64,000 bases of DNA from Eukaryota sp. GEM-RC1 (taxonomy: Eukaryota), in contig JAUFOQ010000004.1 in the NCBI GenBank assembly GCA_040285855.1, positions 1,426,001 through 1,490,000 of the forward strand. The letters run 5' to 3'. The position numbers were made by a program, and so were the translations under genes. This document shows positions 6,241-64,000 of this stretch, in pieces. The notes below the pieces were generated by a model, which saw nothing but the letters and a program-made list of their open reading frames with translations, was not told the origin of the DNA and did not search any database. Position 1 is the first letter of the stretch; the number at the start of each line of letters is the position of its first letter.

Positions 6241-6530
6241 CCCAGTTCACGCTTTGTCAAATGATGCTAAAAGACGAAGATAACCCGTATGTACGAGAAG
6301 TTTTTGTTACTGTATATACTTATACTAGTTGGAGCCATGTTGGATCCAATATCTATGGGTTCCAACAAAGAACAAGATATGACTAAGGTGAACAATCTCA
6401 ATTAATATTTGTTTATTTTGAAAAGGTACATGAACTGCAAATTACCCTTCAAAGGACGTCAGAACAATAACTTACTATTAAAATATTTACCTACTGAGAC
6501 AAAAGAGAAGTGAAAACAACAATAATATCT

Positions 6531-32516: not shown

Positions 32517-33197
32517 TACACGAACAATCAAGCCGAGTCCGCCCACAATGCACTAAAATCCGGAGATCAAATGTACAAAAGAGACTTGGAGAGTGATATG
32601 GAGAAAGCTATGGCTACTATGGAGCATCCAGTAATCGACTTAAGAAGGAAAATTGATGTTGATAAGCAGAGAGTCGACCGAGAACTGATCAACACCGATT
32701 TATTTGTGAACGTAATTCGACACGTGTCATCTTTTGCTTTGTTGAAGGTTTTACAAATTATTGCTTTTAGCCAAACGAATCACGTGGATTCAGTATGTTC
32801 AGGTAGAACTGAGAGAATAACTGGAATTCCATGTATTCACAGCATTAAAAGAACACAAAGACTTTCCAAAGTCATGTTTCATCGACAGTGGTGGTTAGAA
32901 GAGGAAGAAGAATCAGGTCAAATTTCTAATCCTGTTGAAGAACTGCTCAATCAATGGCGGTCTACTGACTCAGCAGCAGACAAGGTACGGTTAGAAGAGG
33001 CTGCCAATGTGGGTTTAGCAAGGTCTGTCCATCGATACGAAGGTCCAAAAGTTCATGAGGAGAATGGTAGGGTGATGAGAACTGAAAAGAAGAAAACCGC
33101 AAGGAAATGTAGAGTGTGTCGCCGGGAAGGACATGATAGCAGAAGTCATTGTCAAAGATGTAAGAAATTCAAGAAAGATTGTGGTTGTGAGCACTAG
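32517..33197 (+). mobile_element. Second, 5'-truncated copy of the MULE transposase
   Basis: Near-identical to 27931-28609 from YTNN(Q/R)AESAHNALK onward; upstream sequence is unrelated. Confidence 0.85.
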
Positions 33198-38800: not shown

Positions 38801-41800
38801 TTTCCAAATATTCAACGTTGAATTCAAATGAAGATTCGGCTTGATTTACACTCAAGAAATTTAAAATAAGTGATCCCTGTAGAGATTCTTGGTCTAATAT
38901 TTCACAATTTGAAATACATTCTACAGTAATAGAGTAATTGTACTGATTGAAATTGACTGTAAAAGACTGATGAATAGCAACTTCATAAAAGAAAGGAAAC
39001 TGATCGTCAATCAGATCAGTCATCAAGGCAACTGTCATTGATTGTGGTGATTGATGTAACGTGATAAAAGGATCGTCATCATATAATTCAAGCACATTTG
39101 AGCCCCTTTTAAGGAACATAGTTTGACGGCCGTGCGAAAGATAAATATTTGAAATTTCTTCCAATAATAAGAACTCAATTCGAGAATCGTTTTGAATGAG
39201 CGGAGGTAGAACTAGATAATTGTCGACTTCGAAGGCTAATTTAAGATCAAAAGCAGAAGCAAAAGATCTTCCAAAAGCAATAAAGAATCCAATAGAAATC
39301 ACGTCAACTTCAAACGTGACTAAATCTTCATCAACAATAGATAACTCAGATGTTAATTCTCCAAATATAAAACTACTCTCAATAGCTGAGTACTCGTAGA
39401 AATGAATTCCTTCAACTTCGAGAGAAATTTCATGAACAAAACTAGACTCAAACCACTGAATAAATCGAGGAGAAATTGAATTGGGTAAGACAATATAAGG
39501 TAAATTAAAGATAGGATAACAACCAACTTCACTACATAATTCTAAATCATCAGGATATCCAGGCACTGAAGACATAAACTCAATGTGAGCAAGACCAGGA
39601 GTTGTTTGAAAATTTACAATTTCAATGGAATTTGGAATGTCCAAAGTCACTTGGAAATCGTTCAGAGAAACCTCTCCATAGAGACTATAAACAGTAATCT
39701 CACACGGTTGGTTAACAAAGCAAACCAAGGAAGTATTATAAGCTTCTAATGACGTGATTGGAAGTGATAGAATAATAGAAATACCCGTAGTAAATTCAAT
39801 ATGAGTAATAAATCTATTTAGACCAACTAATTCTCCAGTATAAATGATCATTTCATTAGTTGTTAGGTCTTGTACAACAGCTGAAGAACCAGACATTTGA
39901 ATAGTAGAATTGGAAAAACAGTTAAACATTTGGCCAAAATATGATCCAAAAATTCTCAAAATATTTCCAGAAGGGGAAAGTACCAATGGGAAAACTCCAT
40001 GTCTTGGAGCTATAAGTTGAAGTTGAAATACATTACTGGTTTGATTTCCAATTATTACATAAAGATTGAAAATGTTACTTTCAACTGAACAAACGTAAGG
40101 AATATAATGAACAATTTCTTCATGAGAATGATTTGACACACGTGTTGAAGCAATGTCAGAAACTAAAGATGAATAGTCAAAACTTGTTGAAAGATCTTGG
40201 CCAATGATTGAAAGTTCTCCGTTCATTAGGAATGGATACGGATAAACAAAAGAAATGACAGGTTTTTTAAAACAATAAGTAAAGGAAATTATTGAAGAAT
40301 CTGTCGACCTAGATACGAACATCTCATGACAACCATGACCTTCAAAAAGAAGAAATTCAAATTTTCATGATTACTTGAATAATACGCAAGACTTTCATTT
40401 ACCCAAGCAGTTGAATGATGAATAACAATAGGAACTAACCCAAGATTAAAAGCAAACAGTGGTACAAATCCACCTCTAGTTGGAGGTTCTAGACTAACAA
40501 ACTCAATAGGACAAATAGGAATGAATAAATGTTGGAATGAAAATATTCTGGAAATAGTTAAATTGAAATAAATTGAATTATTCATTGGATTGAAGGAAAT
40601 GCTATCATTTAAAAAGAAATCAAGAGAATTCAATAGAAAGTTGTGGTAGAATTCATCATTATTAGGAACTGAGAGTTCTAGTAACTCTGAAAGATAGTCG
40701 ATATTATTGAAATTAAGATAAACTTGACAGAAAGACGTGTTACAGCAGTGTTGTGAAGGAAAAATTGAAATGTTTGAGAAGATTTGAGAAAGATCTAAGA
40801 ATGGATCGTTCCCAAACAATAAGTCCCGATTAATTGAAGCAAATTTTGAAATAATTGGATATCCAGAAGAGAATGTAATTGATGAATTTTGAGCCGTTAG
40901 GGAGGATAAGAACAAGACTTCTGTTGAATTAGTCAGAATAAGTGAAGAGTTGGTGATTTCAAAGTCAGATTTAAAGACTGTTTGGTATGTGCAACCCGAA
41001 AATTTAAAATTATTCAACATTACTGAAGAATTCGAAACTCTAAAGTAAGGTTCTATTTCTCCAAAAGAAGAAAGTGACTTGCATTGTTGAATAGAAACTT
41101 TGTCAAAATCAACAAAAGATTTTGAAATATTGAATAAAGAGGTCGATTCAAAGAAATTTACTGAGAGTTGGGAAATAGAAAGAGAAGAATCAAATACTTG
41201 AAACAGTGTTAATGACTCAATGTCTTGAATAGTCCAAAGGTGAAGTGAACAAGAAGAATTATAGAGGGTTACAAAAGAGTCAATCAGAGTGAAATTTTCA
41301 AATGCTACAGTATTTGATGTAAAAATAGTATCACTAAAATTGAGTGCAGAATATAAAACCATATTAGAAAAAGTGGCATCGTTCAGAATCAGATTGGAAT
41401 TAAAAGAATATAGCAAATGATGAGATACGATATTATTGATTACAAGACTAGAAGCAGTGACATTGGATGAAATAAAATGAATTAAACTTAAATCCTCAGA
41501 ATTATTTTCATCATCAAAGAATAGACCAGTAGTTTTAGCTGATCTATGTATTCGAAAATTTTGAATCAACACGTCACTGTTGGAGGAATACACGATTCTA
41601 TTTGAAATTTCAAAAAGTCGGCATCAAATAGACTAAAACTGGTTGTAATTAAGTCAAAAGAACATCTGACAAGACTGAAACAATTTCGACATGTATCAAG
41701 GAGATTTCGCAATCAAATGACGTGATGACGGGAACATTGATGACGTCAGCATATAAGTTTGTAATCAAAAATTGAGAACTAGAAGTGTTGAACATGTAAG

Positions 41801-44800
41801 GATTTGCTGAATTCAAGAATGTAGAGATAAGAATTTCTAAAGAATTCAATTCAATTTGACTGTTCGTAGCTTGAATTAGGGCACTTAATTGACAATGAGC
41901 AAAGCTTAAAGAAGTTGAATTCATTAAAGAATTTCTCAACACTGAAAATTCATGACTAACACTGGAAGTTTCTAGCGTAAACATAGACATCACAATAACA
42001 GACTCTTTGGAAATGAGAACTGAATTGGTGATTGTTTTTGATATCATAACTCCTTGACAGTAGAGCTCAGAGGTATCTAATTTGAGGACATTCGTGACAT
42101 CAGCATTTACAGTAGTGACGTTTTCAAATCGGAATGAAGATGATACGAGATGAATAAAACTTTCACTTGAATTGATGGATGTATGTTCTGAATTAGAAAT
42201 TGAACCGGTAGAATCATTGAAGATGAGGAAGTTGGCACTCGTGATTTGGTCTAAAACTAAGTAATTAAGGGAAAAAGTTGATGAAGTCACTGATATTGTT
42301 GACGTATCAGACTTGGAATGAAACTTAGACACACTAACATTTGAAAAGGTGGAATTTGAAAAATTAATCAACATTAGACTATAAGCATTAAAGCTAAGAA
42401 TAAGCAAGTCGTTAAATGTAATAAATGATTCATAAGAGAATAATAATGGAGATGTCAGTTGATCAACATTAAACTGTGTGGCCTTAAGAGTTGAACCTAG
42501 AACTTTAATTAAAGAAATATTGGTATTAAAAGGACCGGAAATATCAATAGAATGAGCATTGACAGTACCATGTGAAATACTAAACAAAGAGTCTGATAAG
42601 TCATTTGTTGAGCCAAAATCAACTGAAAAGAGATCAACACGTGATTCAGATATTTGGAAAACTTCAAATATTGTTGAATAATACAAATGTAAGTGTTCTA
42701 CTCGCATTCCAGTCTCCACTGCTTTAATAAATGTATCCAAAGTCGTGGAGTTGTGAACTATCAAAGTATTGACTTCAATATCTGACATTACCGCTATCAA
42801 AAATGATTGTGTGTTAGCATTGAATATCTCAGTGTTGATAAGATTGAGAGTTGAATAATTGAACTGGAAAGTAACGTCAGTAAAGGCATTGGAGACTAGT
42901 GAGTAATCAATTGAACACGAACTTGAATCAGATAAATTAAGAATTGAGAAAGAATAAATGTCAGTAAAAGAACAGTAAATAAAGGTTAATTCAGTAGTTT
43001 TTGCATCAATAAGAGACAAAGCTCTAATTGTACGAAACCGGACATTGTCAAAGCCAGCAGAAGAATTAATAATTGAAATCATATCCAAATTAACACTACA
43101 TACATTGGAAAAAATAGAAGAACTAATGATTAAAGTAGAATGAGTTGCAGAACCAATTGATCGAGAGCTAACATTGTTAAAAGAAGTATTTGAAAGGTAA
43201 ACTTCACTAGAAATGAATTCAAAGAGAGTACAATTAAGTAACTCAAAAGCAAGAAGGTCGCTAACAAAGTTGGAATTGCTTAGATGAATTAATGAAAAAT
43301 CGTTAGGAGTAGAAATGTTAAAAAATACCAAATTTTTGAAAACTAGATCGGATCGGTGTCCAATCAAAAATGATTCAATCAAAGTGAGATTAGTATTCAA
43401 AGTAACGTCATGCAGAATTAATGTAGAATCATTTAGATCGAAAAAGATTCCAACTTCGCATCTCCGACTTCAACCAAATTGATTGTGACCACTGAATCGT
43501 CGGCATTGATAAGTGATTGAGAAGACTCCACGTCAATAATAGAACTATTTGACAAAGAAGCTGAAGAAGAAGTAAGAGAGAGGAAGTGTTTTAAATTGAG
43601 AATGTTGAAATGCGAAAGAGTTAGTGAAAATGTTGAATCATTGAAATTGAAGAAAGAACTTCCATAAATCATAGAAAACGTTGACCCTTCAACAGTTACA
43701 TTAGAAAGATTATCTACAGAGACCAGTACTTGAACCTCAATAGAATGGAAAGAACTATTTGATATTCCTAATTCAGAATTAGAACTAAATATGACAGATG
43801 ACGTGTTGGAATTTGTCAAAAAGAGCGGAAATTACTGCTGATGAATCCTTAAAAGAGAATATTGAACACTCAACTGCAGATAATAAGATATCAACAACTG
43901 TGAATTGTGAGCGATTAAACATAAACAGAGGATCAGAAGCATCACGTATATAAGAAGCATTGATTGAACTCATTACAATAATGCTAAATTCTGAGTAGAG
44001 AAATGACTTATTAATTCTCATAGAATCAATATCCAAGTGATTAATAATAACATTACTGTCAAAGATTTCAAAAGCTAAAGAAGTATTAACCTTAGTCAAG
44101 GATGTAGTATTAAAACTCATAGATCCATGGTCTAAATGAATAAGTGAAGTAAAAGAAGAGTTTTCAATAAGTAAGTTGTTCATAGATCCATTACAATGTA
44201 GACATGTTAAGAGCACGTTAGCATTCGTTTGAGTTAGTATAATTGAAGATAGATCTAAATGAGAGTCAACAATGTTGAAGAGATTGTTGGAAATTGCAGC
44301 TAACTTTGTGTTGATTGAATAGCTTCCACTTGAGTCATTTGAACAAGTTGACCCTTCATTAATTTGATGAAAATCCAAAAAGTCAAGAGTTGAATTTGTA
44401 GATTTAGTAAGCAAAAACCAGTAGTTAAAATTGAATCATAAACCTTAGCCAAATTAAGTTCTAATGTTGAATCAGAAAGATCAAAAACACTGTTTGTAAT
44501 CAATTTTGATAAATTGAGGTCAATGAGACGAAGAACTGATGTAGATCCATCAAAACTGACGTACTATTCATACCAACAGAACACAAGGAATCAATAAACA
44601 AGTGACTATTTGTTGGCTCGAAAAGTACATTGAAGCTGGAAAATACTACTGAAATATTAAATAATGAGACATTGGAATTAACAATAAGAAAACCAAATTC
44701 TGCTTGGTTATAAGAGATGATGGTATTTTCAATGAAACAACTGTCGACTTTGTTTAAAGCAACTAACGATCCAGAAGATTCAGAAGTATTTAATTTGTTC

Positions 44801-47800
44801 AAAAACAGCGAACCCTCTATTAAATTGAAGAATCCCAAAGTACTTTCTAAATTTGTAGAAGAAATAGAAACAGAATCGATAATAATAGAACAATCCGTTG
44901 ATAGAAGAAAAGTATTGGAGATTGACAAGTGGTGCAACACAAAATGATTCATAACAATGATTGAATTGGAGATGTGATACACACGTGATGCTGACGTGTT
45001 CGACATCATGAAGTCGGAAAATGACAGATCACATTCATTCAAAGTAAACATATTAGTAACAGAAGAATTACTAACGAAGAACCTTTGGAAAGCACCAACA
45101 GATTGTTTTGAATTAAAAAATTCCACAATACTTGACCGAATCAATGAAATATCATTGAGCTCTAAAATTGTCGGTTGAGCCAGAATGACAGTTTCTAAGT
45201 AACTGTCATAAATATTCAAAAATTGATATCCAAAAGATTGACCTCCATTAACTCAATAAGACTTCCAGTCGTATCAAAAATGTCCATATCAGTAATAAAA
45301 ACAGTACCTCTGAGAATATCAAAACACGTGTCACAAGTAACAGTAGAAATGGTTAATTCATTTAGTTCAACTGGACCGTTTGATGACTCAATCAGTGACT
45401 TACAATTAATATCTTGAAAAACAAAGGTTTGGAGGTCAATCTTTGAGTTGGAAACGAAGATGATTGCACTTGAAGAATCAATACTGAACAGGTTAAAGTC
45501 AATTAAAACGATTTCAGCATCGTTAGCAGATAGTAACTGATCAATTTTAATTGATGATGAAACTGTAAAACGATCCATAATAAATACACTAGAGTTGATT
45601 GAAAAGATAATTGAAGTGGTAACAGACTCAAAAGAAAGACCATTTTCAATGATCTGACTTTCGACAAGATCAAAAACAACATACGAAAAGTTAGAATTTG
45701 AACAAAATGAATAAGACAAAGTAATGTTAGACTTTGTTAATTGAAATAATGATGATGAGTTAATATTTAAAAAAGTGCTGTAAGAAATATCCAATGGTGT
45801 GTTGTCAAGGACAAAAGGGGAATCCGTAAAAGATCCAGAAACACTAACATTTTGTAAAATTAATTGGGAATTACTAGACCTTAATAAACTGGAGGAATTC
45901 GACTCGAAACTACAGTTTGATAGAAAAACTGTAGATGTATCAGTCAGTATTGTAGTAGAACCAGCTTCATGAAAGATATTTGAATTAATTAATTGGATAA
46001 TGGAATCATCAAAAGTAAAACAACTAGGAGAATGACAAACAATATCAATGTTGGAAAGAGAAAACTTGGAATGTAGTACTTCCGAAAAAGTCTGGTAGAT
46101 TCCATCAATCACAACGTCCCCTAGACCAATCAATTGCCAATCAACGTCATTTACATCACCCAATCCATTTTTAAAGGTGTAAATTCCACTATGAAAATAT
46201 ACTGTCCCTTTTGTTCCCATTCTGTCTACAACTCTATTGAAAGAAGCACAAGGACTATCAAAAGTACCACAACAAGGATCATCAACGCCAGTAGTAGAAA
46301 TGTAAGAAACTTGATTTAAGTCGAGTACATTATCATTGATAGAGACAACTAGAGAAGTTTCTGAATAGATAGCAGTAATGAGTGAATTACAAGGACTAAT
46401 AACATCATGAAACTTACCATTAATTAGACCAGATTCTATAATAGTGTAGTTATTCCCAGTTGAATCATACATTGTTTCAAATTCTATTTCTAATATTCCA
46501 TCTAAATAAGCAGTTGAACCAATAATTAATTGAGTAAAAGAATCACCACTATTGATTTGAATAGAGACGATAGAAGAAGGTAAAAGAGCAAGAATATCAT
46601 CAAAAGCAATTAAAGGTAAAGGAATGAGTTTTCCAGCGTTCGAGGTGTTGTTGAAAACTGTTCCTAACCCTCTTAAAATTTGAAATTCTGACAATTCCAA
46701 ATTTTGCTCTAAAATGACGTTTGCATCTGACAATATGATACCAGCAACCGAATTGAATGTAGTTGTAGATAATGTAACGAAATTTTTCATCAAAACATCA
46801 GAATGACAAGTGATAGAACCACTAGAAGACTGGAATTCTGAAACTGACACGTCATCAAGAATCACGTGACTGAAGAAATCAAAAGAATTCGCCAATTGAA
46901 TCCGACCAGTGATTGATGAATTATCTACTGATTCTTGAACAATAAAAGAAGATGAAAAATTTCCTGAATTAATCTCAGAATATGTTTCAACTGACAATGG
47001 CGAAGTTCCAAGTATTTGGCAATGAAAACAAGAGAAATAAGCAACAATAGTGTGAGTACTTGAAACTGACTCAAAAGTTGAAAATGATAAATCTAAAATA
47101 TGGATGGAAGCAAAATCAAAATCATTCTGAAAATGACTGTTGACAGCGATCAAAATAACATTTGATGAAGAGATATCGACTGAATCATCAAAGTAGAGCT
47201 CACTGAAATGTAAGGTTACATGGATGCTATCAGAATTAATTTTTGAGTCTTCACTTAAGCTCATAATCGATTCACTGTCAAGCTCGAGTTGCTCTAAATT
47301 TTCAAAAGTAAAGTTATTTAATTGTAAGTTTGAAGAAATCAAAGAAACAGAACTGATGAACATTTTTGCTGATAGAAACATAAAGTTTGAATCAATTAAT
47401 GAAAGGTGTCCCCAATGATCTTGAGGGGTATCAAAACTTAATTGATTAATCTCATCAATGGATAGGGTAGTGGTGGAAAAACGGCGTCATGAACAACACT
47501 TGAATTGATTAATTGCAAGGTTGAGTCAGGTAGTGAAAAACAGAAGAGCGAATAGCAGAAAATATCAACGTTTGAAAGAGAAAGATTGGTGCTTATTATT
47601 TCAAGTAAAGTCTCGTCAAATGCTTCCAATCACCACGTCACCGAGACCAATCACTTCCCAATCAACGTCATGTACCTTCCTCAATCCATTGTTAAAGGTG
47701 TAATTTCCACTATGAAAATAGACCTGCCCTTTTATGCCCATTCTGTCTAAAACTCCTTTAAAAGAAGCACAAGGACTATCAAAAGTTCCACAACAAGGAT

Positions 47801-50800
47801 CATCAACGCCAGTAGTAGAAACGTAGGAAATTTGATTCAAGTCGACTACATTATCATTGACAGAGACAATTAGAGAAGTTTCTGAATAGATAGTAGTAAT
47901 AAGTGAATTACATGGACTAATAACATCATGAAACTTACCATTAATTAGACCAGATTCTATAATAGTGTAGTTATTCCCAGTTGAATCATACTTTGTCTCA
48001 AATTCTAGTTCTAATATTCCATCTAAATAAGCAGTTGAACCAATAATTATTTGAGTAAAAGAATCACCACTATTGATTTGAATAGAGACGATTGAAGAAG
48101 GTAAAAGAGCAAGGTTGTCATCAAAATCAATTAAAGGTAAAGGAATGAGTTTTCCAGCGTTTGAGGTATTGTTGAAAACTGTTCCTAATCCTCTTAAAAT
48201 TTGAAATTCTGACAATTCCAAATTTTGCTCTAAAATGACGTTTGCATCTGACAATACGATACCATCATCAGAAGTGAATGAAGTAGCAGATAACGTTACG
48301 AAATTTCTCATCAAAACATCAGAATGACAAGTGATAGAACCACTAGAAGACTGGAATTCTGACACTGACACGTCATCAAGAATCACATGACTGAAGAAAT
48401 CAAAAGAATTCGCCAATTGAATTCGACCAGTCATTGATGAATTAAATACTGATTCTTGAACAATGAAAGAAGACGAGATATTTCCCGAGTTAATCTCAGA
48501 ATATGTTTCTACCGACAATGGGGAACTTCCAAGTATTTGGCAATGAAAACAAGAGAAATAAGCAACAATAGTCTGAGTACTTGAAGCTGACTGAAAAGTT
48601 GAAAAGGATAAATCTAAAATATGAATATTAGCAAAATCAAAATCATTCTGAAAATGACTGTTGATAGCAATCACAATAACATCTGATGACGAGATATCTA
48701 CCGAATCATCATAATAGAGCTCACTTGAACTTAAGGTTATATGGAGGCTATCAGAAGTAATTTTTGAGTCTTGACTTAAGCTCATAATTGATTCTCTGTC
48801 AAGCTCGAGTTGCTCTAGATTTTCAAAAGTAAAGTTATTTAATTGTAAATTTGAAGAAATCAACGAAACTGAACTGATGAACATTTTGCCGATAGAAACA
48901 TAATGTTTGAATCAACAAATGAAAGGTGTCCCCAATGATCTTGAGGATTATCAAAACTTAATTGATTAATCTCATCAATGGATAGAGTAGTGGTGGAAAA
49001 AACGGCGTCATGAACAACACTTGAATTAATTAATTGAAAGTTTGAGTCAGGTAGAGAAAAACAACAGGATGAATAGCAAAAAATGTTAACATTTGAAAGA
49101 GAAAGATTAGAGTGAACGATTTCAAATAGAGTCTCATCAATGCCTTCAATAACGACGTCACCGACACCAATCAATTGCCAATCAACGTCAGTTACATTCC
49201 CCAATCCTTGATTAAAGGTGTAACTTCCTTCGTGGAAAATTACCTTCCCTTTCCTTCCCATTCTGTCTAAAACTCCTCTAAAAGAAGCACATGGACTATC
49301 GAAAGTTCCACAACAAGGATCATCAACACCAGTGGTAGAAATGTAAGAAATGGTGTTTAAATGAGCAATATAGTCATCGAAAGACCCAATTACTGAAGTA
49401 GAAGTATACTCAACATTAAAAATAGAAGAACACGTGCTTTTGACTGAAGTAAATTGACCCAAACGATGGCAAGAATCAATAAGGACGTATTGTTTACCAC
49501 CCCAATGTTTGAAAGGATCAAATTCTACTTCTATTGTACCATCTAGAAAAGCAGTTGAACCTACAGTTACTTGAGTTGAAGAATTATCACTATTGATTTG
49601 AATAGAGACAGTAGAAGAAGGAAAAAGTGAAAGATTATCATCAAAATTAATTAAAGGTAATGGAATTATTTGCCCAGCGTTTGAGGTGTTGTCAAAAATT
49701 ACTCCTAATCCTCTTAAAATTTGAAAATCTAGCAATTCAAAATTTTGCTCTAAAATGACGTTTGCATCTGAGAGAATGATATCAGCATCAGAATCGAATG
49801 AAGTTGTAGACATTGTAACGAAATTTCTCATCAAAACATCAGAATGACAAGTGATAGAACCACTAGAAGACTGGAATTCTGAAACTGACACGTCATCAAG
49901 AATCATGTGACTGAAGAAATCAAAAGAATTCGCCAATTGAATTCGACCAGTGATTGATGAATTATCTACTGATTCTTGAACAATTAAAGCAGATGAGAAG
50001 TTTCCTGAATTAATCTCAGAATATTTTTCTACTGACAATGTCGAACTTCCAAGTATTTGGCAACTAAAACAATAGAAATGAGCAACAATAGTGTTAGTAC
50101 TTGAAGCTGACTGAAAAGTTGAAAAGGATAAATCCAAAATATGAATATGATCAAATGCAAAATCACTCTGAAAATGACTGTTGATAGCAATCACAATAAC
50201 ATTTGATGACGAGATATCTACCGAATCATCATAATAGAGCTCACTTGAACTTAAGGTTATATGGAGGCTATCAGAAGTAATTTTTGAGTCTTGACTTAAG
50301 CTCATAATCGATTCACTGTCAAGATCGACTTGCTCTAAAATTTCAAAAGTAAAGTTGTTTAATTGTAAATTTGAAGAAATCAAAGAAACTGAACTGATGA
50401 ACATTTTTGCTGATAGAAACATAATGTTTGAATCAATAAATGAAAGGTGTCCCCAATGATCTTGAGGAGTATCAAAACTGAATTGATTAATCTCATCAAT
50501 GGATAGAGTAGTGGCGGAAAAAACGGCGTCATGAACAACACTTGAATTAATTAATTGAAAGGATGAGTCAGGTAGAGAAAAACAATAGGCGGAATAGCAA
50601 AAAATGTCAATATTTGAAAGAGAAAGATTGGAGTGAACGATTTCAAATAGAGTCTCATCAATTCCTTCAATAATGACGTCACCGAGACCAATCAATTGCC
50701 AATCAACGTCAGTTACATTCCCCAATCCTTGATTAAAAGTGTAACTTCCTTCGTGGAAAATAACCTCCCCTTTCCTTCCCATTCTTTCAAAAACTCCTCT

Positions 50801-53800
50801 AAAAGAAGCACAAGGACTGTCGAAAGTTCCACAACAAGGATCATCAACACCAATGGTAGAAATGTAGGAAGTTTGATTTAAGTCGACAACAAAATCATTT
50901 ACAGAGACAATTAGAGACGTTCTTGAATAAAACGTAGTCATAAGTGAAGCACATGGATTAATACTACTGAATCTTCCATTAATTTGACCAGCTTCTATAA
51001 GAGTGTAATTGTTTCCTGTTGAATCATACTTTGTGTCAAGTTTCAGTTCTAATATTCCATCTAAATAAGCAGTTGAACCAACAATTATATGAGTAGAGGA
51101 AAAATAACTGTTGATTTGAAGAGATATGATGGAACCAGTAGAAAGAGAAAGGTTGTCTTCAAAAGTGAAGTTCGAGGAAGGTTTAATTTTGCCACAATTT
51201 GAAGTATTAGTAATAATAGTACCAAATCCTGTAATAATTTGATAATCAAGGATTACAAAAGAGGATCAAAAAGAAAAAATTGAATCGTATAGAGTCAAAG
51301 TATCATGGTAAATAAAAGAAACTTCGGAAATAGCAACATCATTTTTGATCAAAACATCAGAATGACACGTAATAGATCCATAAGATGACTGGAATTCTGA
51401 TACTGACACGTCATCAAGAATCACGTGACTAAAGAAATCAAAAGAATTCGCCAATTGAATTCGACCAGTGATTGATGACTTATCTACTGACTCTTGAACA
51501 GTTAATGAAGATGAGAAATTTCCAGAATTAATCTCAGCATATTTTTGTACCGACAATGGGGAACTTCCTAGTATTTGGCAATGAGAACAGAAGAAATAAG
51601 CAACAAAAGTCTGAGTACTTGCAGCAGACTCAAAAGTTGAAAATGATAAATCCAAAATATGAATATTATCAAAGACAAAATCATTCAGAAAACTACTGTT
51701 GATAGCGATCAAACTGAGTGTTGATGATAAAATCTCAATCGAATCATCAAAATCTAGCTTACTTGAATTTAAAGTTATAGTAAGATTATCAGAAACAATT
51801 TTTGAATCTTGAGTTAAATTAACCAACGAATTACCACAGAGCTCAAGATTTTTTAAATTGTAGAAAGATATCTCACTTAACTTGAGAGTTGAGAATTTTA
51901 AGGAAATTTTTCTGATGTCAAACTGGTATGATGATAACTTTACATTGGAATTAACAAGAGAAAGTATTCCTTGTCCCGAGATACCACTAGAGTGTGAACT
52001 ATAAGCAAAATTGCACTCCTGCCGTGCACTGATACTAGTAACTCCTTTGCCCTCCAAATGAGTAATACGACCTGGTGCCCACCTTTCATCATTCGAATAT
52101 GTACTTCTACCTAGAGCACCATTCCAATGATCACCCCAAGACCACACGTCATTGTTGACGTCAACAGCAGTGGAATGTCGCAACCCTGCAGCTGCCGTAA
52201 TCACTTTCCCAATGTTTTTTACTTCAACTGGAGTAGTAGAAGAGGATGTCGTACCCCTACCTAGTCTACCATTGCGACCATCACCCCAACTCCACAGCTT
52301 CTGGTTAACATCAATTCCAAGAGCGTGATACTCATGGGTGTCAATAAAGGTAAACTCAATATCCTCAGCAAATGGAATTGGAGTTGCGTAAGTTACGGAC
52401 TCAGCCAGTTTTCTACCACAAGTAAGAGTAGAACCATCATCTTTGATGAAAAAAGCAGCACGGCCAGCAGCAATAAATTTAATATTTTCCAATGGTTCGA
52501 TTGGGAATGGTGAATGAACGCTATCAGTACTACATAAAATGTTGCGATTACCACTTCCCCATCCAAAAACTTTACCGTCTCTAGTTAAAGCAAAGGCTGT
52601 GTGTAATCGACCAGCAATTTGCTTAACATTATTTAAATTAGGGATTAAAGTAGGAGTGGCTCTGTTCTCTGTATGTCCTAACCCTAATTCACCATGAAGG
52701 TTATATCCCCAAGAGTAAACATAACCAGAAGAATCCAGTGCGTAACTTGACACAGAAGAAGCAACAACCTGAATAATATCGGATACTTCAATTTTCTCAT
52801 GAACATTCCGATTATCCCCATCGTATCCTAGTTCTCCGTACGTATTAGTTCCAGCAGTGTAAGCGTCACCATTTATTAAGACAACTAGAGAATGAAAGTT
52901 TCCAACAGAAGTTTGTCTAATAGGATAAGGGAGATTGAATGACTCAGGTAACAATTGATGTCCTGATAGTCCTCCTCCTAGATGACCATTGATATTCCTT
53001 CCCCAAACATGAAGAACATCAGAATTTAATGAAGATTCACCATCACTGAACAGGGTTAAAGTAACAGTGTCCAATACCAGTTCACTGAACCCATCTAGAT
53101 CAATTGATCCGCGTTTCCAATTAAAGAGACCCGTGACTATGAGTTTGTGAGAAACGAGAGAGACAACGTCAGTCTCCAAAACTAGAGAGTTTACTGATGT
53201 AAAGGAAGATGAAGAAGACAGATCAGTGTGAAAAGTACCTCCATTAAGAAGAAGAGTATCAGTTACAGTGAGAGTTGAGTTCTTTTTGAAAAGAAGAGCC
53301 GCATTGGAAAATATAGCTAGAGATGATGCAGAGAATGCCACGTCATCAAGAATCACGTGACTGAAGAAATCAATTATGTTGTCAAATTGAACTTCCCCTG
53401 TGATCAAAGAATTCTCAGCAGATTCCAGAACAATTAATGGAGTTGAGAAATTGCCAGAATTAACTTCTAAATGTGAATCGATTGTCAACAATGAATTTCC
53501 TAGTACCTGACAATGAGAGCACAAGAGAGAACCAACAATTACTTCAGAATCAAATGACGCAACAGTTGAAAAGGATAAATCTAAAAGGTGAAAATTGGTG
53601 ACGAGAAAATCATTCAGAAAATGACTGTTGATAACAATTAAACTCAGTTTTGATATGGAAATGTCATTCGAATCGTCACAGTAGAGCTCACTTGAGTTTA
53701 AAGTGATAGTTAGATCATGAGATTCAATTTTTGAGTCTTGAGTTAAATTAACCAACGAATTATCACAGATTTCAAGATATTTTACATTGTTCAAGGATAT

Positions 53801-55453: not shown

Positions 55454-56124
55454 TAACCCAAATTGAATAGAGAAAAGTACCTTCAAAAATGAAAATCAGA
55501 CTTTCTAATTCTCCACAATCCTCTGTACCAGTTCCCGTTACATTATGTTAGCACTACACATCATCTACAATGTACGTACACATATTGTCCACTTATACAA
55601 TCCAAGTAGACTGTACTTCATGACCCTTCATCATTTGGCACAAAGTTGAACTCTCAATACAACAAACATATATGTCAGAATCGTTCAAGTAGCATTATCT
55701 ACCTACAATAGGCAATAGAACGTGTTCTCTTCATGATCAAAGATCTCGATTAGGCTGCATGATACATGTTGCTCTTCCTTTGTAAAGATGAGTGTCCATG
55801 ATCGGGTCCATGTACTCAAACATGTTAATACTACCCTCTGTGGATCCATGACAGACACCGCCGATATACTTCACCGTCCATCAATAAACTCAGAATCATT
55901 TAATGAGTCTTTGCCCTGCGTAGTTTATCATATATCCTCTCTATTAGTGCATTCTGATACATCCACATTTCTCTAAGTACACCTCTTTCAATACTTGGAT
56001 TTGTCATTGTTGCGACCTCACCTAACACTTCAGCTGAAGGTCTCTATGCTGACTGGTGATAGAATAGAAAACGGTTCTTACAGTTCGATCAAAGTATAGA
56101 AGACCTTAAACTGTGATTAAGAAC

Positions 56125-56862
56125 TAAGGCTGTTAAAAGATATCAGGTCACAGGTCAGGTCAAAGTCTTGATCCTATCTTGACCTGACCTTTGACCCGAT
56201 GGGAGAACTGTTGTGTTTATAGTTGCTGTTCAGTTGTTTGTTATGTTGAACTCCAAAAAAGTAAAGAAATTGCTAAATAAATCATTAGAGCTGTCAACGG
56301 CTTGAGCCGAATGGTTTGGCTTGGAGAAATCCAAACTGGTTCGGCTTTGGCTTGAGCCATTTGAGTAAGCCGAACCAAATTTCGATATGGTTTGGCTCAA
56401 GTCGTTCGGTTTACGGCTTGAGCCGAACCGTTTGACAGCTCTATAAATCATTTTATAAATTATTTTAATAAGTCATTTTCTGAATTAGTATTTATTAATT
56501 TATTGTTGCAAATAAACGCTTAATAAATCTTTAAATTCAAAACCAAATCTTAACCATGCATTCAGACAGACAAGAGCTTGAGCATCGTCAACTTGTAAAC
56601 ATTGTCATTCTCACCACTGGAAGATTGTATAATCCACACATGACAGAATATGTAGCTAGTGTAGAACGTTTTGATACATAATAATAGATCTGTGCTGTCA
56701 GTCCATCATGATTTTGAACTAGAGCACAGACATTGAGCAGAGAAGACCGAATCTGAGCTATCTTGACCTGACCTTTGACCCGATGGAAGGTATCTTGATC
56801 AGACCTGAGACACGACCTGACCCGAGTGCCGATGATCGTATCTTAACTTTTTAACAGCCTTA
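56125..56862. mobile_element. Non-autonomous TIR element (hAT-like), 738 bp
   Basis: Perfect 14-bp TIR TAAGGCTGTTAAAA / TTTTAACAGCCTTA; subterminal GACCTGACC repeats; absent from the paralogous empty site at ~26340 (GATTAAGAATATGC). Confidence 0.85.
56286..56443. mobile_element. Nested hAT-type MITE, 158 bp
   Basis: 12-bp TIR TAGAGCTGTCAA; perfect 8-bp TSD TAAATCAT (56278-56285 and 56444-56451); internal GGCTTGAGCC repeats. Confidence 0.92.
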
Positions 56863-57245: not shown

Positions 57246-60200
57246 ATGACCCACTTCCAAGACTTTGCTCAGCAATGTCTTACATCCATCTCTTCCAAGC
57301 CTTCCAATGAGATTGAAGATGCCCTCAACCTCGTTCTTTCTCCATCAACTCCTCACACCACTAGACAAAACGCACAACTATTTCTGGATCAACTAAAGTC
57401 ATCTTCACCCATAAATTCTCGTTTACAACTCGTCTTCTCCCTTCTCTCTTCCCAATCAAACCAACTTCAATTCTTTTCCTTCTCAATATTACAACATATC
57501 ATTGATCACGAATGGTCCACCATCTCTTCCCAAGAACAAGACTCTCTTATCTCCTTTCTCCTAGGCATCTGTCTTTCCGATACGTATCCTTTAGTCTTCT
57601 TCAAGGCTGCAGATATCTTTGGAAGAGGATGTAGAAAGTTCCTCTTTTCTTCTACAGCTGCAGAACGCTTTCTCTCTCCTTCTCTTGTAGGATTTCAAAC
57701 AGCTTCTGATGAAAAGAGTTTGAAAGTACCTTGTGATATTATTAAAAATGTATTTGAAAATTGTGCTTTGGATGGGACTCGAAAAGAAGTTCGAACAGTC
57801 ATGTCAAATGTCACCATTCATTATGCAGGAATATTCTTTTCTAAAATTCCAGATATTTTAAAATTTCAATCAATTGAAGCAGTTACTGCTGCCACGTCAT
57901 CAATGAATTTTGGTTATAATGTTGTCATTGAACATTCTGATGAACTTTGTCAGTTGTTGTCTTGCTTGTCCTCCCAGTATTCTTTTGAGTTTCAAGATGC
58001 TGTTTTAGATCTATTTTTGGCTTTTGTTGGACGTAAAATTGATGCTCAGTACACCAATCAATTTTGCAAAGTTTTTGATTTTATTTTGAGCCAATCAGAT
58101 TTGATTGTACGAAAAGGGGAACTATCGCGATACGATTTCCATACGAAATTTGTTGATCTAATTATGACGTATCTCAGCAAATTCCATAACCTAATTTCAA
58201 ATAATTCTAATTTAATTCAAAAATTACTAAATTCTCTACTATTATGGAGTCAACATCCTAGTCAAAAGATTTTCTCAATGATTCTACAATCACTGTCTGA
58301 ATTTGAAAGATTTTCTCCTAAAGTTGATGGAGAAAGTGCTCCTTTTTCTGCTTTTGGTGACGTGTCATTTTTGAACTTTTTTATTGACCGGTCAATTATC
58401 ATGATTGGTAAAGTCGGTTATCCTTCTAAGTTGGACGAATCTTCTGACATTGAACCTCATTCAGAGATCAATCAGATTAGATCGTTTATATCACATGATT
58501 TTGACACGATTGACACTTATCATTCGTTCTTGTCGCAATTACGTAGTATTTTCAAAACTTTTTTTAAATATTTACTGAAGTCCAGCAATTATGCCACTGT
58601 ATTTGAGATTCTTTTGTCACTTTATTGTCGTTATCTGACACAAACTTTTGATATTTTACCTAAGAGAAGTCAACCTTTTTCTCTTCATTCTCCATCAATA
58701 ATTCTGTTAGATTCTTCTGTATTCGCACTCGAGTCTTTTTTCAAAATTTTAAATTTTGCCATTGTTGAAAGTTTTGCAAATGAACTCAAGAGTAAATCTG
58801 AAATGTTACTAAATTATTTGTTAAATTTAAAATGCTCAGACTGTTTTCAAATACTATTTATCTCTTCCGTCATTGTGAATCTACTTCCGTTCTTCCTTCA
58901 AGCTGGAGGTGATTCAACCTTCTTTTCAAAAACAATCTCCACCTTCCTTTCTTGGTGCCATTTCACACCCCCCTCATGAAAGAAGCAACTTTCCATCAAA
59001 GAATACGTCATCAACACGCAGAAAAGCAGCTACTTCAATTCTAGAACTGTCTAATAAGTGTCCGAATAAGTTTGCTGACGTCAGTCAGTCAGTTATTGAT
59101 TGTTTAATCAATAATGATTATGGAGCTCCTGAAGACGTAAAACTCTATCTTTATGAATCTTTAGCCGAAGTTTCTAACTCTTTCCCAAACAGAGAAATGG
59201 GGGTCAATTTCATGACCCAGTTATACACTCCAATCATCAATCAGTTTAATAACCTAGTCAATAGCGAATTGACTTCTTCACCAACTAAATTTCTAGAGTT
59301 TTTGAAATAACTAAACCTGAAATTACTACAGCTGGAGTTGCAAATAGGTCTTTATTCTATTGGAACATTGCCTTTATTGCTGTGGCAATTAAGAGAACTT
59401 TAAATTCTGTTAATATATTCAAACAAACTTTTGAGTCAGTTGTCAAATTATTTCTGTTTATCAATTCTCTACTAGATCCACAACACTCATCGATTGTTCC
59501 TCGACAACTTTTTGATCCTGATTCTGACGTGAGCCAAACTGTTTCTGATGAAGTCTTCACAGCTGATTACTTAGTGATTGAAAAGGGATCAGCACCGATC
59601 TCGACTCAATTATCTGCTTTCAAGTTCGTTTTCTACCACGTTAAAGGTTTCTGCATCACTGTTTTCAGTCAGAGTTCTTACAAATATTTCATTTTTGATA
59701 CCAACTTTATTCAAATTTTCAACGAACACTATTTTTCTCTTTTTAAATATCTCCCAGATTCTGATATTCGAGTTTTCCTTCGAAGTTTTGGTGAAGCTCA
59801 AATCTTTGCACTTCCATCATGTTCTAGTCCTCCTTTTGTTTATCAAAATTTAATATGTCCTTTTATTGAAGCAGTCTGTAATAAGCTCAGAATGACTGCG
59901 AGTGAGCTCAATCAGTTAGCCAATCAACCAAAATCAGACACGCTAGGGACAGAAATCACAAAAGAAAAGAATTTCGCTGATTTATCAAAAGAACTTTTTA
60001 ATGTTTTTGGTGCTTTATTTAAAACTGACCAACAATTCGAAGTCATGGAAGCTAGTTACGTCAGCATTAGTTGTCCTTCTTTTGCTGTCAGAGTAATGGA
60101 ATCTATTTGTTCAATTCTTCCCATTATTTCCAATTGGTCCATTTACTAAGTTTTTAAGTATTTTTTCTCGGTTTTTTGTTCCTGCGATGCGCGAACCAAT

Positions 60201-60528
60201 TCTGCAAGAATTCATTGGTTTTAAAATGTTAGAATCTGTTCTTGTTACAATTAAAACATCCCCAATTATTTCAAAAGACATTCCGGGCGAAAGTTTCAGT
60301 TTTATTCGTGATGTTTATGTTGTATTCGCTTATCTTGAGAGCAAATCCTCCTTCTCCACACCTCCTCTACCAGTATCTGTTCCAAATGTTCCAGTTGTAG
60401 CTCATTACCCAAGGATTTTGTTTCAAAAACTAGTTGGTTCAACTGATCAATTAGATCAATACATACGACAGTGTGCGGTGTTTACTGATCAACGAACTGC
60501 ATTTAAACAGTTTCTGGGATTTGAGTGA
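57246..60528 (+). CDS. XPO5: Exportin-5-like karyopherin (three apparent indel errors, ~58970, ~59300, ~60140)
   Basis: Importin-beta-like N-terminus (RQNAQLFLDQLK; QFFSFSILQHIIDHEW); exportin-5-like motifs QHPS, KVGYPSK, DFDTIDTYHSF, RRKAATSILEL; four ORFs join by single-base shifts. Confidence 0.75.
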
Positions 60529-60670: not shown

Positions 60671-62217
60671 TTATTTGGAATATATTGGGCGGATTGGATG
60701 AGCCTCGGTATTAAACACAAAATCTGTACAAAATTTACGATTTCTCGTAAACAATAAATAAAAATATTTTAAAGTCTCTGCTAGAAACCAAGAGGGTTGC
60801 CAGTCATCAATGTCAAAGTCACCATGATTTAGATTGGACAAACAATGAAATCCTCCACTCTTAGTTTGTAAAGGCAGGAGATGTGACCACATGCGTTCAC
60901 CAATTTTTAAATATTCATCATTTTGAAATAGACACCACCCAAAGTAAACAGATTCAATAACTTCAGGTCTGAGTAAATGTCTGGAATCTGCGGTAGTCCA
61001 GGAAGAATTAGAACGAGAAAACTCTTGTGGATAACTAAACTCTGGGGCTGGGGTGAAATAAATACTTTTGTAGTTTTTAATAAGAGTAGGTTTTTGCAAT
61101 AATTTAGAATTTACAAAATGAACTCCGTCAGGTGCTGGAGAGTTAACACCCAAAGAAGAACAGGTTTTGACTAATTCTTGAGTGACTTTTTTCAAAAATT
61201 CAAGTGTGGTAGAATTTAAAATATTCTCGTTTTCAATTAAGAATCGAGCTAACACTGCTGGGAAAAAACACGATAAATGCTCCATTTTACCACTAAAAGA
61301 CTTGATATCCGCATCGTATTCACCCATAAACATTTCATTACTATCAGAAAACCCAATTAGAAAATTAAAAATATTCGGCAGCATCGACATTGTCATTTTC
61401 GAATAATGCCTACTTCCCTTCAACAAAATTAAATTTTTCATTACATACTCAACATAGCTATCAGACAAGCCATTCAAGGTATAAGCACTTCCAACATTTT
61501 CCCCAACAACTCCAGATAATAAAGTAGGTAACAATCCAGAAACTAAAAGCTCAGACTTAGTCCCATTTTTAACCTTTTCAATCTCAATTACTGTATTAAT
61601 CTTTTCCACTATACTCTGACTAGCTTTCTTAACCCTAACGTCTCCAGTCCTAGCATACAAAGCGTTAAGTTCAAGAGTAAGTGTTCCAAACTCTGACAGC
61701 ACAGCATCTCCTTGAGTCCAAGAATGGAATGAGCCCTGTTGATTACGAAAGTCCCAAGTAGAGTAAGGGAAGAGATTTGGTTGAGAGAGGAAGGCTGGGA
61801 GTAGAGATTCAGCTAGTTTAGCAGCGTAGGAGAGCAGACGTTCGTCGAAGGTTAAGTCGTAAGAGCTTATTAGAGATCCTATGACTCGGATGGTGAACTC
61901 GAAAAGAGAGACAGATTGATGGAGGTAGCGATGGAGATGTTTGGGGAGTTCAGACATGGCGTGGTGGAAGAGGTCGTGGTGATTGAGGAGTAGCATCGTA
62001 TCAAGAGAGTCAATCATAGAGAGAGGTAGGTGGAACATTGATTGAGAGGATTGTTGGACAGGGTTGAGTTCATCGTTAGGGTATGCAACATGAAGGTAAT
62101 GTAGATAAGATTGACGAAAGGCTTGTCTAACCTGTTCTGCTGGAGGAATAGTACAGTATGTAGATGAAAGACACAAACAGATAATAAAGATGAATATGAT
62201 GTGTTTGTAAGGGGCAT
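60671..62217 (-). CDS. Glycoside hydrolase family 47 (class I alpha-1,2-mannosidase)
   Basis: DELNP, SLFEFTIRVIGSLISSY, SEFGTLTLE, DSYVEY, MEHLSCF, LRPEVIES, SWFLAETLKYFYLLF, FNTEAHP; N-terminal hydrophobic stretch. Start uncertain: the ATG at 62217 is in frame only if one G is missing from GGGG at 62211-62214. Confidence 0.92.
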
Positions 62218-62241
62218 TGACAACACCTTTGCCCAAAAGAC
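62211..62241 (+). repeat. 31-bp perfect direct repeat, copy 1 (GGGGCATTGACAACACCTTTGCCCAAAAGAC)
   Basis: Identical to 62960-62990. Confidence 0.97.
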
Positions 62242-62943
62242 CAGTGTTTCAGAAATACGCATACTTCAGCCTAAATACGCCATATTTGAACTTCTAAGTT
62301 AAGTACGTACTTCCCATACTTATCGTACTTCTCTAACCCACCTACATTCTTATGCTCATCATCTCTGTTTCTTCATAGAATCCTGTTGAGCAATACGTTT
62401 CATCTGTTCTGAGTCGTTCATCCACCTCCATTTACACAAGTTCTCCCAATACTCTTCTTAGTTTGGTACCCAGGCGTTCTTTTCAACCGACTTAGCACAA
62501 TGTTAGTCAAGTGGAGTTTATTTCTCACGGTACACACAAAACTTTTGTAAACATCTGCTTCTATAGCACCTCTTATTGAGGGAATTAGCTAACATTGGCA
62601 TCAAACCTACTGATGCACCTCCTGACGTCTGAAAGAAGAGCTTGCTTAACCGTTGAAGAACCTTCTTAAGACAAGTACTGTTCCACATCTTGATTTCTGC
62701 TGAAGACCTTGAACTGATGTGTTTTTTTCAAGATGGTGATAAAGATTTTTATGAGTTCAATAAATGTTCATACAATATTGGTGTTGTTATGACCCCCTAT
62801 CTTGAGAACAAAAGGGGTACAAAAGGGGTCAATCAATGCAGATTAGACTCCAGAACAGGAAAATACGTGAAGTACGTACGAGTACGTATTTACACAGAAG
62901 TACGTACTTAACAAATTTGTACGTACACGAACTCCAAAAACTG
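62242..62943 (+). mobile_element. Degenerate hAT-like deletion derivative
   Basis: Ends CAGTGTTT / AAAAACTG; 16-bp subterminal inverted repeat GTTAAGTACGTACTTC (62298-62313 and 62897-62912); decayed BED-finger-like VWY…AQC*SSG…TQNFCKHLLL*H (62461-62570); ISAEDLELMCFF resembles a hAT C-terminus; no TSD. Confidence 0.6.
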
Positions 62944-62959
62944 TTGATTACAAACTGTT

Positions 62960-62990
62960 GGGGCATTGACAACACCTTTGCCCAAAAGAC
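62960..62990 (+). repeat. 31-bp perfect direct repeat, copy 2
   Basis: Identical to 62211-62241. Confidence 0.97.
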
Positions 62991-63132
62991 TTTGCTGTGG
63001 TTCTCAACTCAAATGGATATTCCCAAAGTACACAACTTTGTTAATTTTCATTTTGATTAGAGTATCGAAACCACAGACACGCAGTGAGCTAAGCCCACTG
63101 CGCTGTGTACCGTTAAAAGTACACTAAAGTTA
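62960..63132 (-). ncRNA. Putative Fanzor omega-RNA (scaffold, with or without guide)
   Basis: Directly 3' of the Fanzor stop codon. Stems: 63105-63110/63119-63124, 63080-63089/63093-63102, long-range 62995-63002/63069-63076, 63024-63029/63035-63040, 62961-62965/62979-62983. Confidence 0.6.
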
Positions 63133-64000
63133 TTAACGAGAGACCTTCTTCTTCTTGACTGACTTTACGCTTCTTCTTTTAGGCGAACTCATTTCTTTTG
63201 GTGGATTCTTGCATGACGTTTTGTTATGACCTTCTTGGCCACAATTTCCACATGTTGGTTTCTTACGAGTCTTTCCTGTTGAAGTTTTCAACTTTCTGGT
63301 CGCAGTCTTCTTCTTCTTCTGGTCTCTCGCCAAAGTATCCTTACCACTCTCGAGATCTGTTGTTTGAGTTTTAGATCTCTCGAGAGCGGATGGCCTACCT
63401 TGACCATTGATCGTTGCTTCAATGATGGAATAGATATTAATGGCAGAATTTAGGTCTCTATTCCAATAAGTACCACAATCAGCATCTGAGCACTTTACCA
63501 GTCCCCAGGGTGTGGATTTAGCTTCTTCTTCCAATGACTTCTGCTTCACCTCCCACTCTGCTTCCAAAATCCCGCTGGTTTAGAGGATCTTGTTTGTTTT
63601 TGAGCAAAATTTCTCTTCTTAACTTTCTCTTCTTCCTTCTTAGCTGTCTCTTACCTTTGGGACCAAGAACCTTTAGTTCTGAAACATTTTCACATTCTAC
63701 GAAAGTTGATTTTTCCTTAGCACATTTGGAACAACACTTGCTTGTTCTGTATTCATCAACAAGAAATATTTGGTATCCATATCTTCTTAACATTTTACGG
63801 ATTTCCGCTCCTCTAACAGTAGACGTTTTACCCTTTCTTGTTTTACCTTTTGAGCTCCAATCCCCATAGCCAATGACGACGTCTTCTGGAGGTCCATATA
63901 TTAAATTGAAGCGTTCTAGCATGTTTTTCTCCGAACGTTGGTTATTAGAATAAATTTGGAATTTCCTCTTTCTAAACCAGTCATCTTCGTAGAAAGAACT
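63133..64000 (-). CDS. Fanzor1 (eukaryotic TnpB-like RNA-guided endonuclease), 3' part; 5' end outside the window
   Basis: Frame open from 64000: FYEDDWFRKRKFQIYSNNQRSEKNML…VVIGYGDWS…LVDEYRTSKCCSKC…WGLVKCSDADCGTYWNRDLNSAINI. This gives the relocated RuvC-II E, the Cys4 zinc finger and the RuvC-III D. One frameshift near 63565. Confidence 0.9.

Follow-up and report, generated by a model that had tools for sequence, protein, structure and literature searches.

A 31-bp repeat shared by the flank of a Fanzor1 gene and the start of a mannosidase gene, and its probable origin as an insertion scar

A Fanzor1 gene beside a mannosidase gene

The window analysed here is a stretch of 64,000 nt (64 kb) from Eukaryota sp. 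GEM-RC1. At its far end lies a Fanzor1 gene with a structured RNA region, followed on the minus strand by a duplicated 31-mer, a short filler, an insert and a GH47 mannosidase gene. The features of the locus are:

60671-62210, minus strand: GH47 alpha-1,2-mannosidase gene (PF01532, E 1e-87) with a predicted 5' signal peptide
62241-62211, minus strand: gene-side copy of the 31-mer, with an ATG at 62217-62215 and TTA directly after the copy
62943-62242, no strand assigned: insert of 702 bp with imperfect CAG...CTG ends, a subterminal inverted repeat and no recognisable protein
62959-62944, minus strand: filler of 16 nt, made of AACA, the reverse complement of flank positions 1-8, and TCAA
62990-62960, minus strand: Fanzor-side copy of the 31-mer, an exact repeat with a weak hairpin (62983-62961) and a motif match (62984-62973)
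63076-62995, minus strand: long stem c of the predicted omega-RNA (as low in 2/500 shuffles), whose closing base 62995 is a candidate element end
63103-63079, minus strand: hairpin b of the predicted fold, 11 bp
63124-63105, minus strand: hairpin a, 7 bp, pair probabilities 0.89-1.0, likely SL1
63133-64000, minus strand: 3' part of the Fanzor1 gene (RuvC-II E, C4 zinc finger, RuvC-III RD, zinc-knuckle/basic tail), whose 5' part lies past the window

The Fanzor gene, with its stop codon at 63135-63133, carries the Fanzor1 motif D-X(n)-[TS][TS]-XX-C4 zinc finger-X(n)-RD with the RuvC-II glutamate, and VDEYRTSKCCSKC and WNRD are found in the frames of the window; RuvC-I falls outside the window and before the start of the window's own gene model (P0002). 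That model scores above the cut-off for PF07282, and the best PDB matches of the window Fanzor are SpuFz1 (E 3e-12) and PpFz1 (E 2e-7), to which a profile of relatives added GtFz1. These three are the only Fanzor/TnpB structures matched, which places the protein nearer to Fanzor1 than to Fanzor2 or TnpB; the Fanzor identity proposed by an earlier, sequence-only reading of this DNA is thus borne out, as Fanzor1. The reading frame is broken once, near 63575, where a T/G run varies among copies; the break is possibly an assembly error. Fanzor1 was matched by 7 of the 332 candidate proteins, and four of them besides the window's own model (P0001, P0003, P0005 and P0128) are 97% identical to the window Fanzor over the matched stretch, so the family is multicopy. 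The nearest named Fanzor proteins are labelled Eukaryota sp. GEM-RC1 and TZLM1-RC, and the host group is that of Skoliomonas-like metamonads. Among the matches listed, no published work names Fanzor together with this protist group. In the available text of a published paper, Fanzor1 has hAT elements more often than any others as its neighbours (PMC10530073).

The Fanzor family has further features of its own. The subfamily bears a C-terminal CxxCxxxGHxxxxC zinc knuckle and basic tail (63136-63260, minus strand), which weakly resembles retroviral nucleocapsid knuckles and is missing from the viral Fanzor1 relatives. A hairpin with 25-nt arms lies inside the coding sequence (63331-63402, minus strand), about 200 nt before the stop. 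A sister Fanzor1 family (~69% identical, 13 cluster members; P0136, 1182 aa) has an unusual partner for Fanzor, a DNA polymerase B 3'-5' exonuclease domain (PF03104, E 6e-10) that either stands before the Fanzor or is fused with it.

Directly 3' of the Fanzor1 open reading frame the sequence is predicted to form a structured omega-RNA with a 7-bp first stem-loop. The stretch 63124-62995 folds at -50.0 kcal/mol, none of 500 shuffles folds equally low, and the pair probabilities of hairpins a, b and c are mostly near 1. SL1 has 7 bp in three solved Fanzor1 RNAs in the consulted passages of PMC11423790, and hairpin a is likely SL1. The structured region had been read as reaching 62960, a claim that we revise, as its strongly structured part stops at 62995. 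A GGGCA/TGCCC hairpin had also been noted within the 31-mer; it is present (pair probabilities 0.5-0.8), but taken alone it lies within the shuffle range, 126 of 500 shuffles folding equally well, and we rejected it as significant in itself. Searches with this region returned little: seven Rfam matches all fell far under the gathering score, an exact search for the 24-nt omega-RNA hairpin in prokaryote genomes and viral contigs gave no copy, a protein search with an antisense frame spanning the element end, meant to catch gene models in other copies, gave nothing, and the region 62200-63133 in translation was matched by none of 20 Fanzor-family proteins.

The assignment of the neighbouring gene to GH47 in the same reading holds. 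Its open frame runs from 60671 to 62248, and its two closest orthologues are 45% and 42% identical. The 31-mer had been said to cover the only plausible ATG of this gene, and this stands in part: an ATG does lie inside the repeat, but as assembled it is one base out of the GH47 frame, and an intron-joined start is also possible. Two of 15 possible GT-AG introns join an ATG inside the insert to the GH47 frame with the signal peptide kept, so that the ATG in the repeat is not strictly the sole possible start. Its position is apt, just before the predicted signal peptide and 29 codons ahead of a conserved Val; in the two closest orthologues this distance is 27 and 22 codons. The deposited gene model, which begins at 62038, is without the signal peptide. 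A miscount of the C run at 62214-62211 is a plausible explanation of the out-of-frame ATG, because frame breaks in a neighbouring gene and indels in base runs are found elsewhere in the window: the frame of an exportin-like neighbour is broken three times within 3.3 kb, and 12 of the 27 single-base indels between two 16-kb paralogous segments are in runs of 4 or more. Against a miscount, the GH47 frame is unbroken over 10 runs of 5 or more bases. Since a miscount and an intron-joined start are both possible, the ATG does not tell if the 31-mer came from the host or from the element.

The exportin/importin-beta-like gene itself (57246-60528, plus strand) is split into four frames, probably by assembly indels. 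The paralogous segments (6293-22706 and 35560-51989, 93% identical) form a 16-kb segmental duplication, whose genes are very large, are built of repeats, resemble surface-protein genes and have frames broken in many places.

The repeat, the filler and the insert

The exact 31-bp repeat reported at 62990-62960 and 62241-62211 is present: the copies are identical, in direct orientation and 749 bp apart. The 31-mer has two exact matches within the 64 kb, no such repeat appeared in 100 shuffles, and an exact DNA search in viral contigs gave no further copy. Its G+C content is 52%, a value seen in 65 of the 2064 31-nt tiles of the window (~3%), and 66 of the 2064 tiles (~3%) fold as well as its hairpin. 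Similarity between the two copies ends sharply at 31 nt, and the bases after them differ, AAC on the Fanzor side and TTA on the gene side. The 718 bp between the copies consist of the 16-nt filler and the 702-bp non-coding insert.

The filler had been described as carrying the inverse of the flank of one copy, and the 8 nt directly after the gene-side copy do recur in it as their reverse complement. Its AACA equals positions 6-9 of the same flank, so that 12 of its 16 bases come from the 9 bases past the gene-side copy, 8 of these inverted. In a chance test of 20000 random flanks, 26 matched in their first 8 nt, and 189 matched over 8 bases anywhere within 20 nt. The filler is likely repair DNA templated on the gene-side flank, and this origin implies that both 31-mers come from one ancestral site.

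The insert was earlier called a hAT remnant. hAT ends have short TIRs beginning (C/T)A(G/A), plus subterminal repeats. The termini of the insert agree in 7 of 9 bases, and it carries a perfect 16-nt subterminal inverted repeat (62897-62912 and 62298-62313). An 8-bp TSD is absent from its junctions, whose flanks are GTAATCAA and GTCTTTTG. A Pfam search gave no family in five short frames or in six frames read through stops, and hAT identity by protein was dropped for want of a transposase family there; one 56-aa frame had two weak repeat-protein matches among 1.84 billion, and its atlas rows were all below 0.9. No second copy of the insert exists inside the 64-kb window. Helitron1 hallmarks are 5'-TC, CTRR-3' and a 3' subterminal hairpin (PMC3627910, available passages), and by eye, in one copy, 62947-62241 can be read as TC...CTGG, with a weak hairpin rich in A/T that lies 11 nt short of the end. 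Because protein homology and an 8-bp TSD are both lacking, the ends are alike in 7 of 9 bases only and Helitron-type ends are equally readable, the hAT label is thus a guess; the insert is probably mobile DNA of some kind.

Other mobile DNA lies in the window. A hAT-type MITE of 158 bp (56286-56443), about 6 kb from the insert, has ends TAGAGCTGTCAA and a flanking direct repeat of 8-10 bp, and is nested inside a second element (56124-56861) with ends TAAGGCTGTTAAAA. Two MULE remnants, 94% identical, are found at 27926-29501 and 32512-34087 (PF10551, E 5e-5 for the first).

Candidate element ends and the reach of the guide

Where the Fanzor element ends was judged from folding and from the omega-RNAs of relatives whose proteins are 28-37% identical. 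Eleven omega-RNA ends of relatives were chosen by eye (alignment A4), leaving out re-fetched or identical loci, loci cut by a contig end, nine loci with no recognisable end (L008-L012, L020-L022, L026) and, from 120 viral loci with a degenerate omega-RNA pattern, the 119 that lack a Fanzor (L064 has one). For these 11 omega-RNAs, all 76 of 76 cells have the last helix closing with the element end and the TA duplication, a count biased in favour of the structure because the structure was drawn from the same alignment; two pairs are changed on both sides. In the consulted passages, stem 2 of SpuFz1 stops directly before the guide (PMC10432273), and Yoon et al. describe a stem-loop flanking the guide in all cases (10.1101/2023.08.09.552727). 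Since the last helix of the relatives and of SpuFz1 closes at the element end or guide, an end at 62995 or at ~62960 would be expected.

Among the giant-virus-type Fanzor1 loci (L001-L007, L017, L023, L027, L030 and L064), the omega-RNA has two domains: a first hairpin domain with 0-4 inserted hairpins and, past an A/C-rich linker of 9-11 nt, a helix closed by the TIR end and TA.

By our estimate an end at ~62960, with the 31-mer as element end, is a tentative first choice, and 62995 follows it very closely as a possible end. Bearing on 62995, stem c resembles the GtFz1 RNA by eye (Table S3 of PMC11423790). Bearing on ~62960, the last stem of PpFz1 is as short as 4 bp in the excerpted text (PMC11423790), and the TTA after the gene-side copy fits two related element ends. 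PIF/Harbinger ends have a GG(G/C)CC TIR and a TAA/TTA duplication (PMC4423477, in part); the 62960 end reads GGGGC inward, one mismatch from that consensus, with TTA after the gene-side copy and AAC after the Fanzor-side copy. An end at 62973 appears unlikely. The terminal 12-nt motif of the relatives is matched at 62984-62973 (11.0 bits, 0.019 expected per 200 nt, with one of four matrices, after being first noticed by eye); a TA duplication is absent after this motif, TT standing there, and no partner strand is free. The TT does not fit a Tc1/mariner-type element ending at 62973. An end within 62992-62987 seems doubtful, and one anywhere else more doubtful still. No helix closes at 62991-62988 save a leader pairing ACUUU/AAAGU with probability ~0.4, and 62991 as a special position was rejected. 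Of the 18 hits that a covariance model of the 11 relatives gave in 10 kb, the best was 63128-62966, at a non-significant E of 1.5, which lends weak support to the 5' start.

The sequence-only reading had offered two models, with the 31-mer either as guide or as the terminus of the element. These are too few, as a Fanzor end upstream of the 31-mer (62995) or within it (62973) is also possible. A second insertion likely determined where the duplication begins and stops, so the Fanzor end need not match either edge of the repeat.

For 42 candidate ends, the 15-nt guide that each would give was compared with the gene-side copy. The match is full (15/15) for 17 ends (62991-62975), and at 13 of these the four TAM-side bases do not differ from those at the end of the element itself; were such shared bases a TAM, we infer, every copy would cleave itself. 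A full match with a changed 4-nt TAM side is found at only 4 of the 42 ends (62991-62988). An end at 62995 would leave guide bases 1-4 mismatched to the gene-side copy, ends at 62987-62960 would have the TAM-side bases of the element's own end, and at 62960 the guide would be filler. The gene-side copy is therefore predicted to stay uncut, by mismatch, by an own-end TAM side or by a filler guide.

Cleavage of the gene start would require a scaffold ending at 62991-62988, so that the 31-mer is the guide, and a TAM created by chance from the end of the insert, through which Fanzor would cut or bind the GH47 start. Besides the full match, two things speak for it: the ACUUU/AAAGU leader helix could close there, and a pseudoknot of guide-adjacent bases with a 5' loop is known in TnpB and Fanzor2 (10.1101/2023.08.09.552727, available part). 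No Fanzor1 example examined closes its scaffold so, however, and a perfect cis target would be expected to mutate fast, whereas this copy is undamaged. SpuFz1 depends strictly on its TAM, as described in the accessible text (PMC10432273), and the known Fanzor1 TAMs (CATA, TTAAN, ATN) are A/T-rich, whereas the bases offered here are ACTG, CTGG, TGGT or GGTC. Because only four ends qualify and the offered bases are unlike known TAMs, we regard real self-targeting as hardly credible. We give no greater credence to the earlier proposal that this Fanzor is now programmed against a host gene start: any Fanzor inserted there would by default take its guide from the flank, which is not a reprogramming. 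By title or abstract, no natural Fanzor self-targeting of a host gene appears among the literature matches listed. The wider proposition, that the guide hits the adjacent gene start with a new TAM and cuts, binds or represses the mannosidase, or in a milder form that the start codon or first exon comes from transposon-end DNA with a frozen Fanzor cut-and-repair junction, is highly improbable in our estimate.

Origin of the duplication and comparison with known systems

We consider it fairly probable that the two 31-mers are one ancestral junction between the Fanzor1 element and the GH47 start, duplicated when the 702-bp piece was inserted with one clean and one repaired junction. The locus would then probably be an ordinary insertion scar, and not a nuclease aimed at a host gene. 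In the order of events that we infer, a copy of the multicopy Fanzor1 would have inserted 0-35 bp from the GH47 start; a Fanzor at a gene start has the gene's 5' DNA as its guide by construction, so the match between guide and gene is automatic. The right end of the insert would later have joined cleanly at the first base of the 31-mer, while the upstream free end may have been extended by DNA synthesis through the 31-mer and ~9 further bases. A template switch would have yielded the inverted 8-mer, and after the loss of ~5 bases the end would have been ligated to the left end of the insert. For this reading, an exact repeat brackets one insert that has transposon-like ends and the 16-nt subterminal inverted repeat, and the templated filler is compatible with the break-repair scar that had been suggested from the letters alone. 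Comparable cases are described in the passages available to us. The Fanzor-bearing elements CRe-1,2,3 have long duplications of 7-19 bp, some of 44-443 bp, with extra bases (PMC3627910), filler at transposon breaks in rice averages 13 bp (PMC4423477), hAT and MULE cleavage forms hairpins in flanking DNA (PMC5499845), and aberrant Ac transposition gives direct duplications in maize Ac/Ds (PMC3744419).

Against the insertion scar, the insert has no transposase homology or normal TSD, whereas the nearby hAT-type MITE has a TSD. The length of the repeat also equals the TIR length of related Fanzor1 elements (~25-33 bp), and the duplication begins just 4 nt away from where stem c closes, with its midpoint 20 nt away; Fanzor1 cuts 14-21 nt past the TAM, according to the part of PMC10432273 seen. 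The nearness of the repeat centre to the Fanzor1 cut position is unforeseen under chance insertion. These two coincidences, of length and of centring, feed two other explanations. On one hand, the 31-mer may be the TIR of a transposon family, of which the Fanzor element and a non-autonomous relative (the insert with the gene-side copy) carry one each, nested or adjacent, the second having hit GH47 codon 2-3 and left no in-frame start. The out-of-frame ATG, the fit in length, the G+C content and hairpin that are each rare among the tiles of the window, and the TTA after the gene-side copy, as in Harbinger or TTAN elements (PMC4423477 and PMC3627910, in the portions available), are all consistent with this. 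The inverse-flank bases after the Fanzor-side copy would be left unexplained, the flanks of the two copies differ and their similarity ends abruptly, and the ATG stands at an orthologue-like distance from the conserved Val in a gene otherwise intact. We therefore hold shared TIRs to be a rather unlikely source of the repeat.

On the other hand, the duplication may be a scar of Fanzor cutting: the nuclease would have cut an empty allele 14-21 nt beyond the TAM, and repair that copied the filled allele would have overshot, folded back and captured the insert. With an end at 62995, the published cut positions (PMC10432273, in part) would fall at ~62981-62974, in the middle of the 31-mer, and the filler resembles repair synthesis. 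This account depends on the uncertain end 62995, however, and asks that both broken ends be extended and that 702 bp with transposon-like ends be captured at the junction; moreover, staggered Fanzor cuts leave overhangs of a few bases, not 31. It strikes us as improbable, and we give no more credence to an assembly artefact in which a Fanzor allele and an insert allele were merged or a long read was chimeric. The window does contain indel errors, as in the exportin-like gene and the runs of the paralogous segments, and the frame break of the Fanzor gene falls at a variable run; yet merging is not expected to yield a templated inverted filler, the two copies do not differ and the GH47 frame stays unbroken across its runs.

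If the ordinary insertion scar is the true reading, a match between a guide and a host gene can arise whenever the flank of a Fanzor is duplicated, a pitfall for scans that seek domesticated Fanzors. If instead the element ended at 62991-62988 with a working TAM, this would be a natural eukaryotic RNA-guided nuclease on a host gene start, and would bear on the co-option of Fanzor for host regulation. A side value of the locus is the record of Fanzor1 families in the host protist group.

Compared with known systems, as far as the cited texts were available, the protein and its RNA are like SpuFz1, PpFz1 and GtFz1 (PMC10432273; PMC11423790) in the RuvC-II/zinc-finger/RD layout, the structured 3' RNA, the 7-bp first hairpin and the multicopy state, and unlike them in the metamonad-like protist host, the extra C-terminal zinc knuckle and the duplicated downstream flank. 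The TA-duplicating TIR Fanzor1 elements of giant viruses (PGv-1 type, PMC3627910) share 28-37% protein identity, a similar first hairpin and the 12-nt motif, whereas here TT and not TA follows the motif, and their linker-plus-TTTACAC motif is absent (best 0.6 bits). The duplication itself is like that of the CRe-1,2,3 Fanzor1 Helitron2 elements of Chlamydomonas (PMC3627910), which have long variable TSDs and short extra sequence at one junction; there, however, the duplication flanks the Fanzor element itself, and here a separate 702-bp insert lies downstream. Aberrant hAT transposition (Ac/Ds, PMC3744419) and hAT/MULE footprints (PMC5499845) likewise give direct duplication by a transposon end and inverted flank bases at a repaired junction; here, by contrast, the junctions have no 8-bp TSD and hAT is a guess for the insert.
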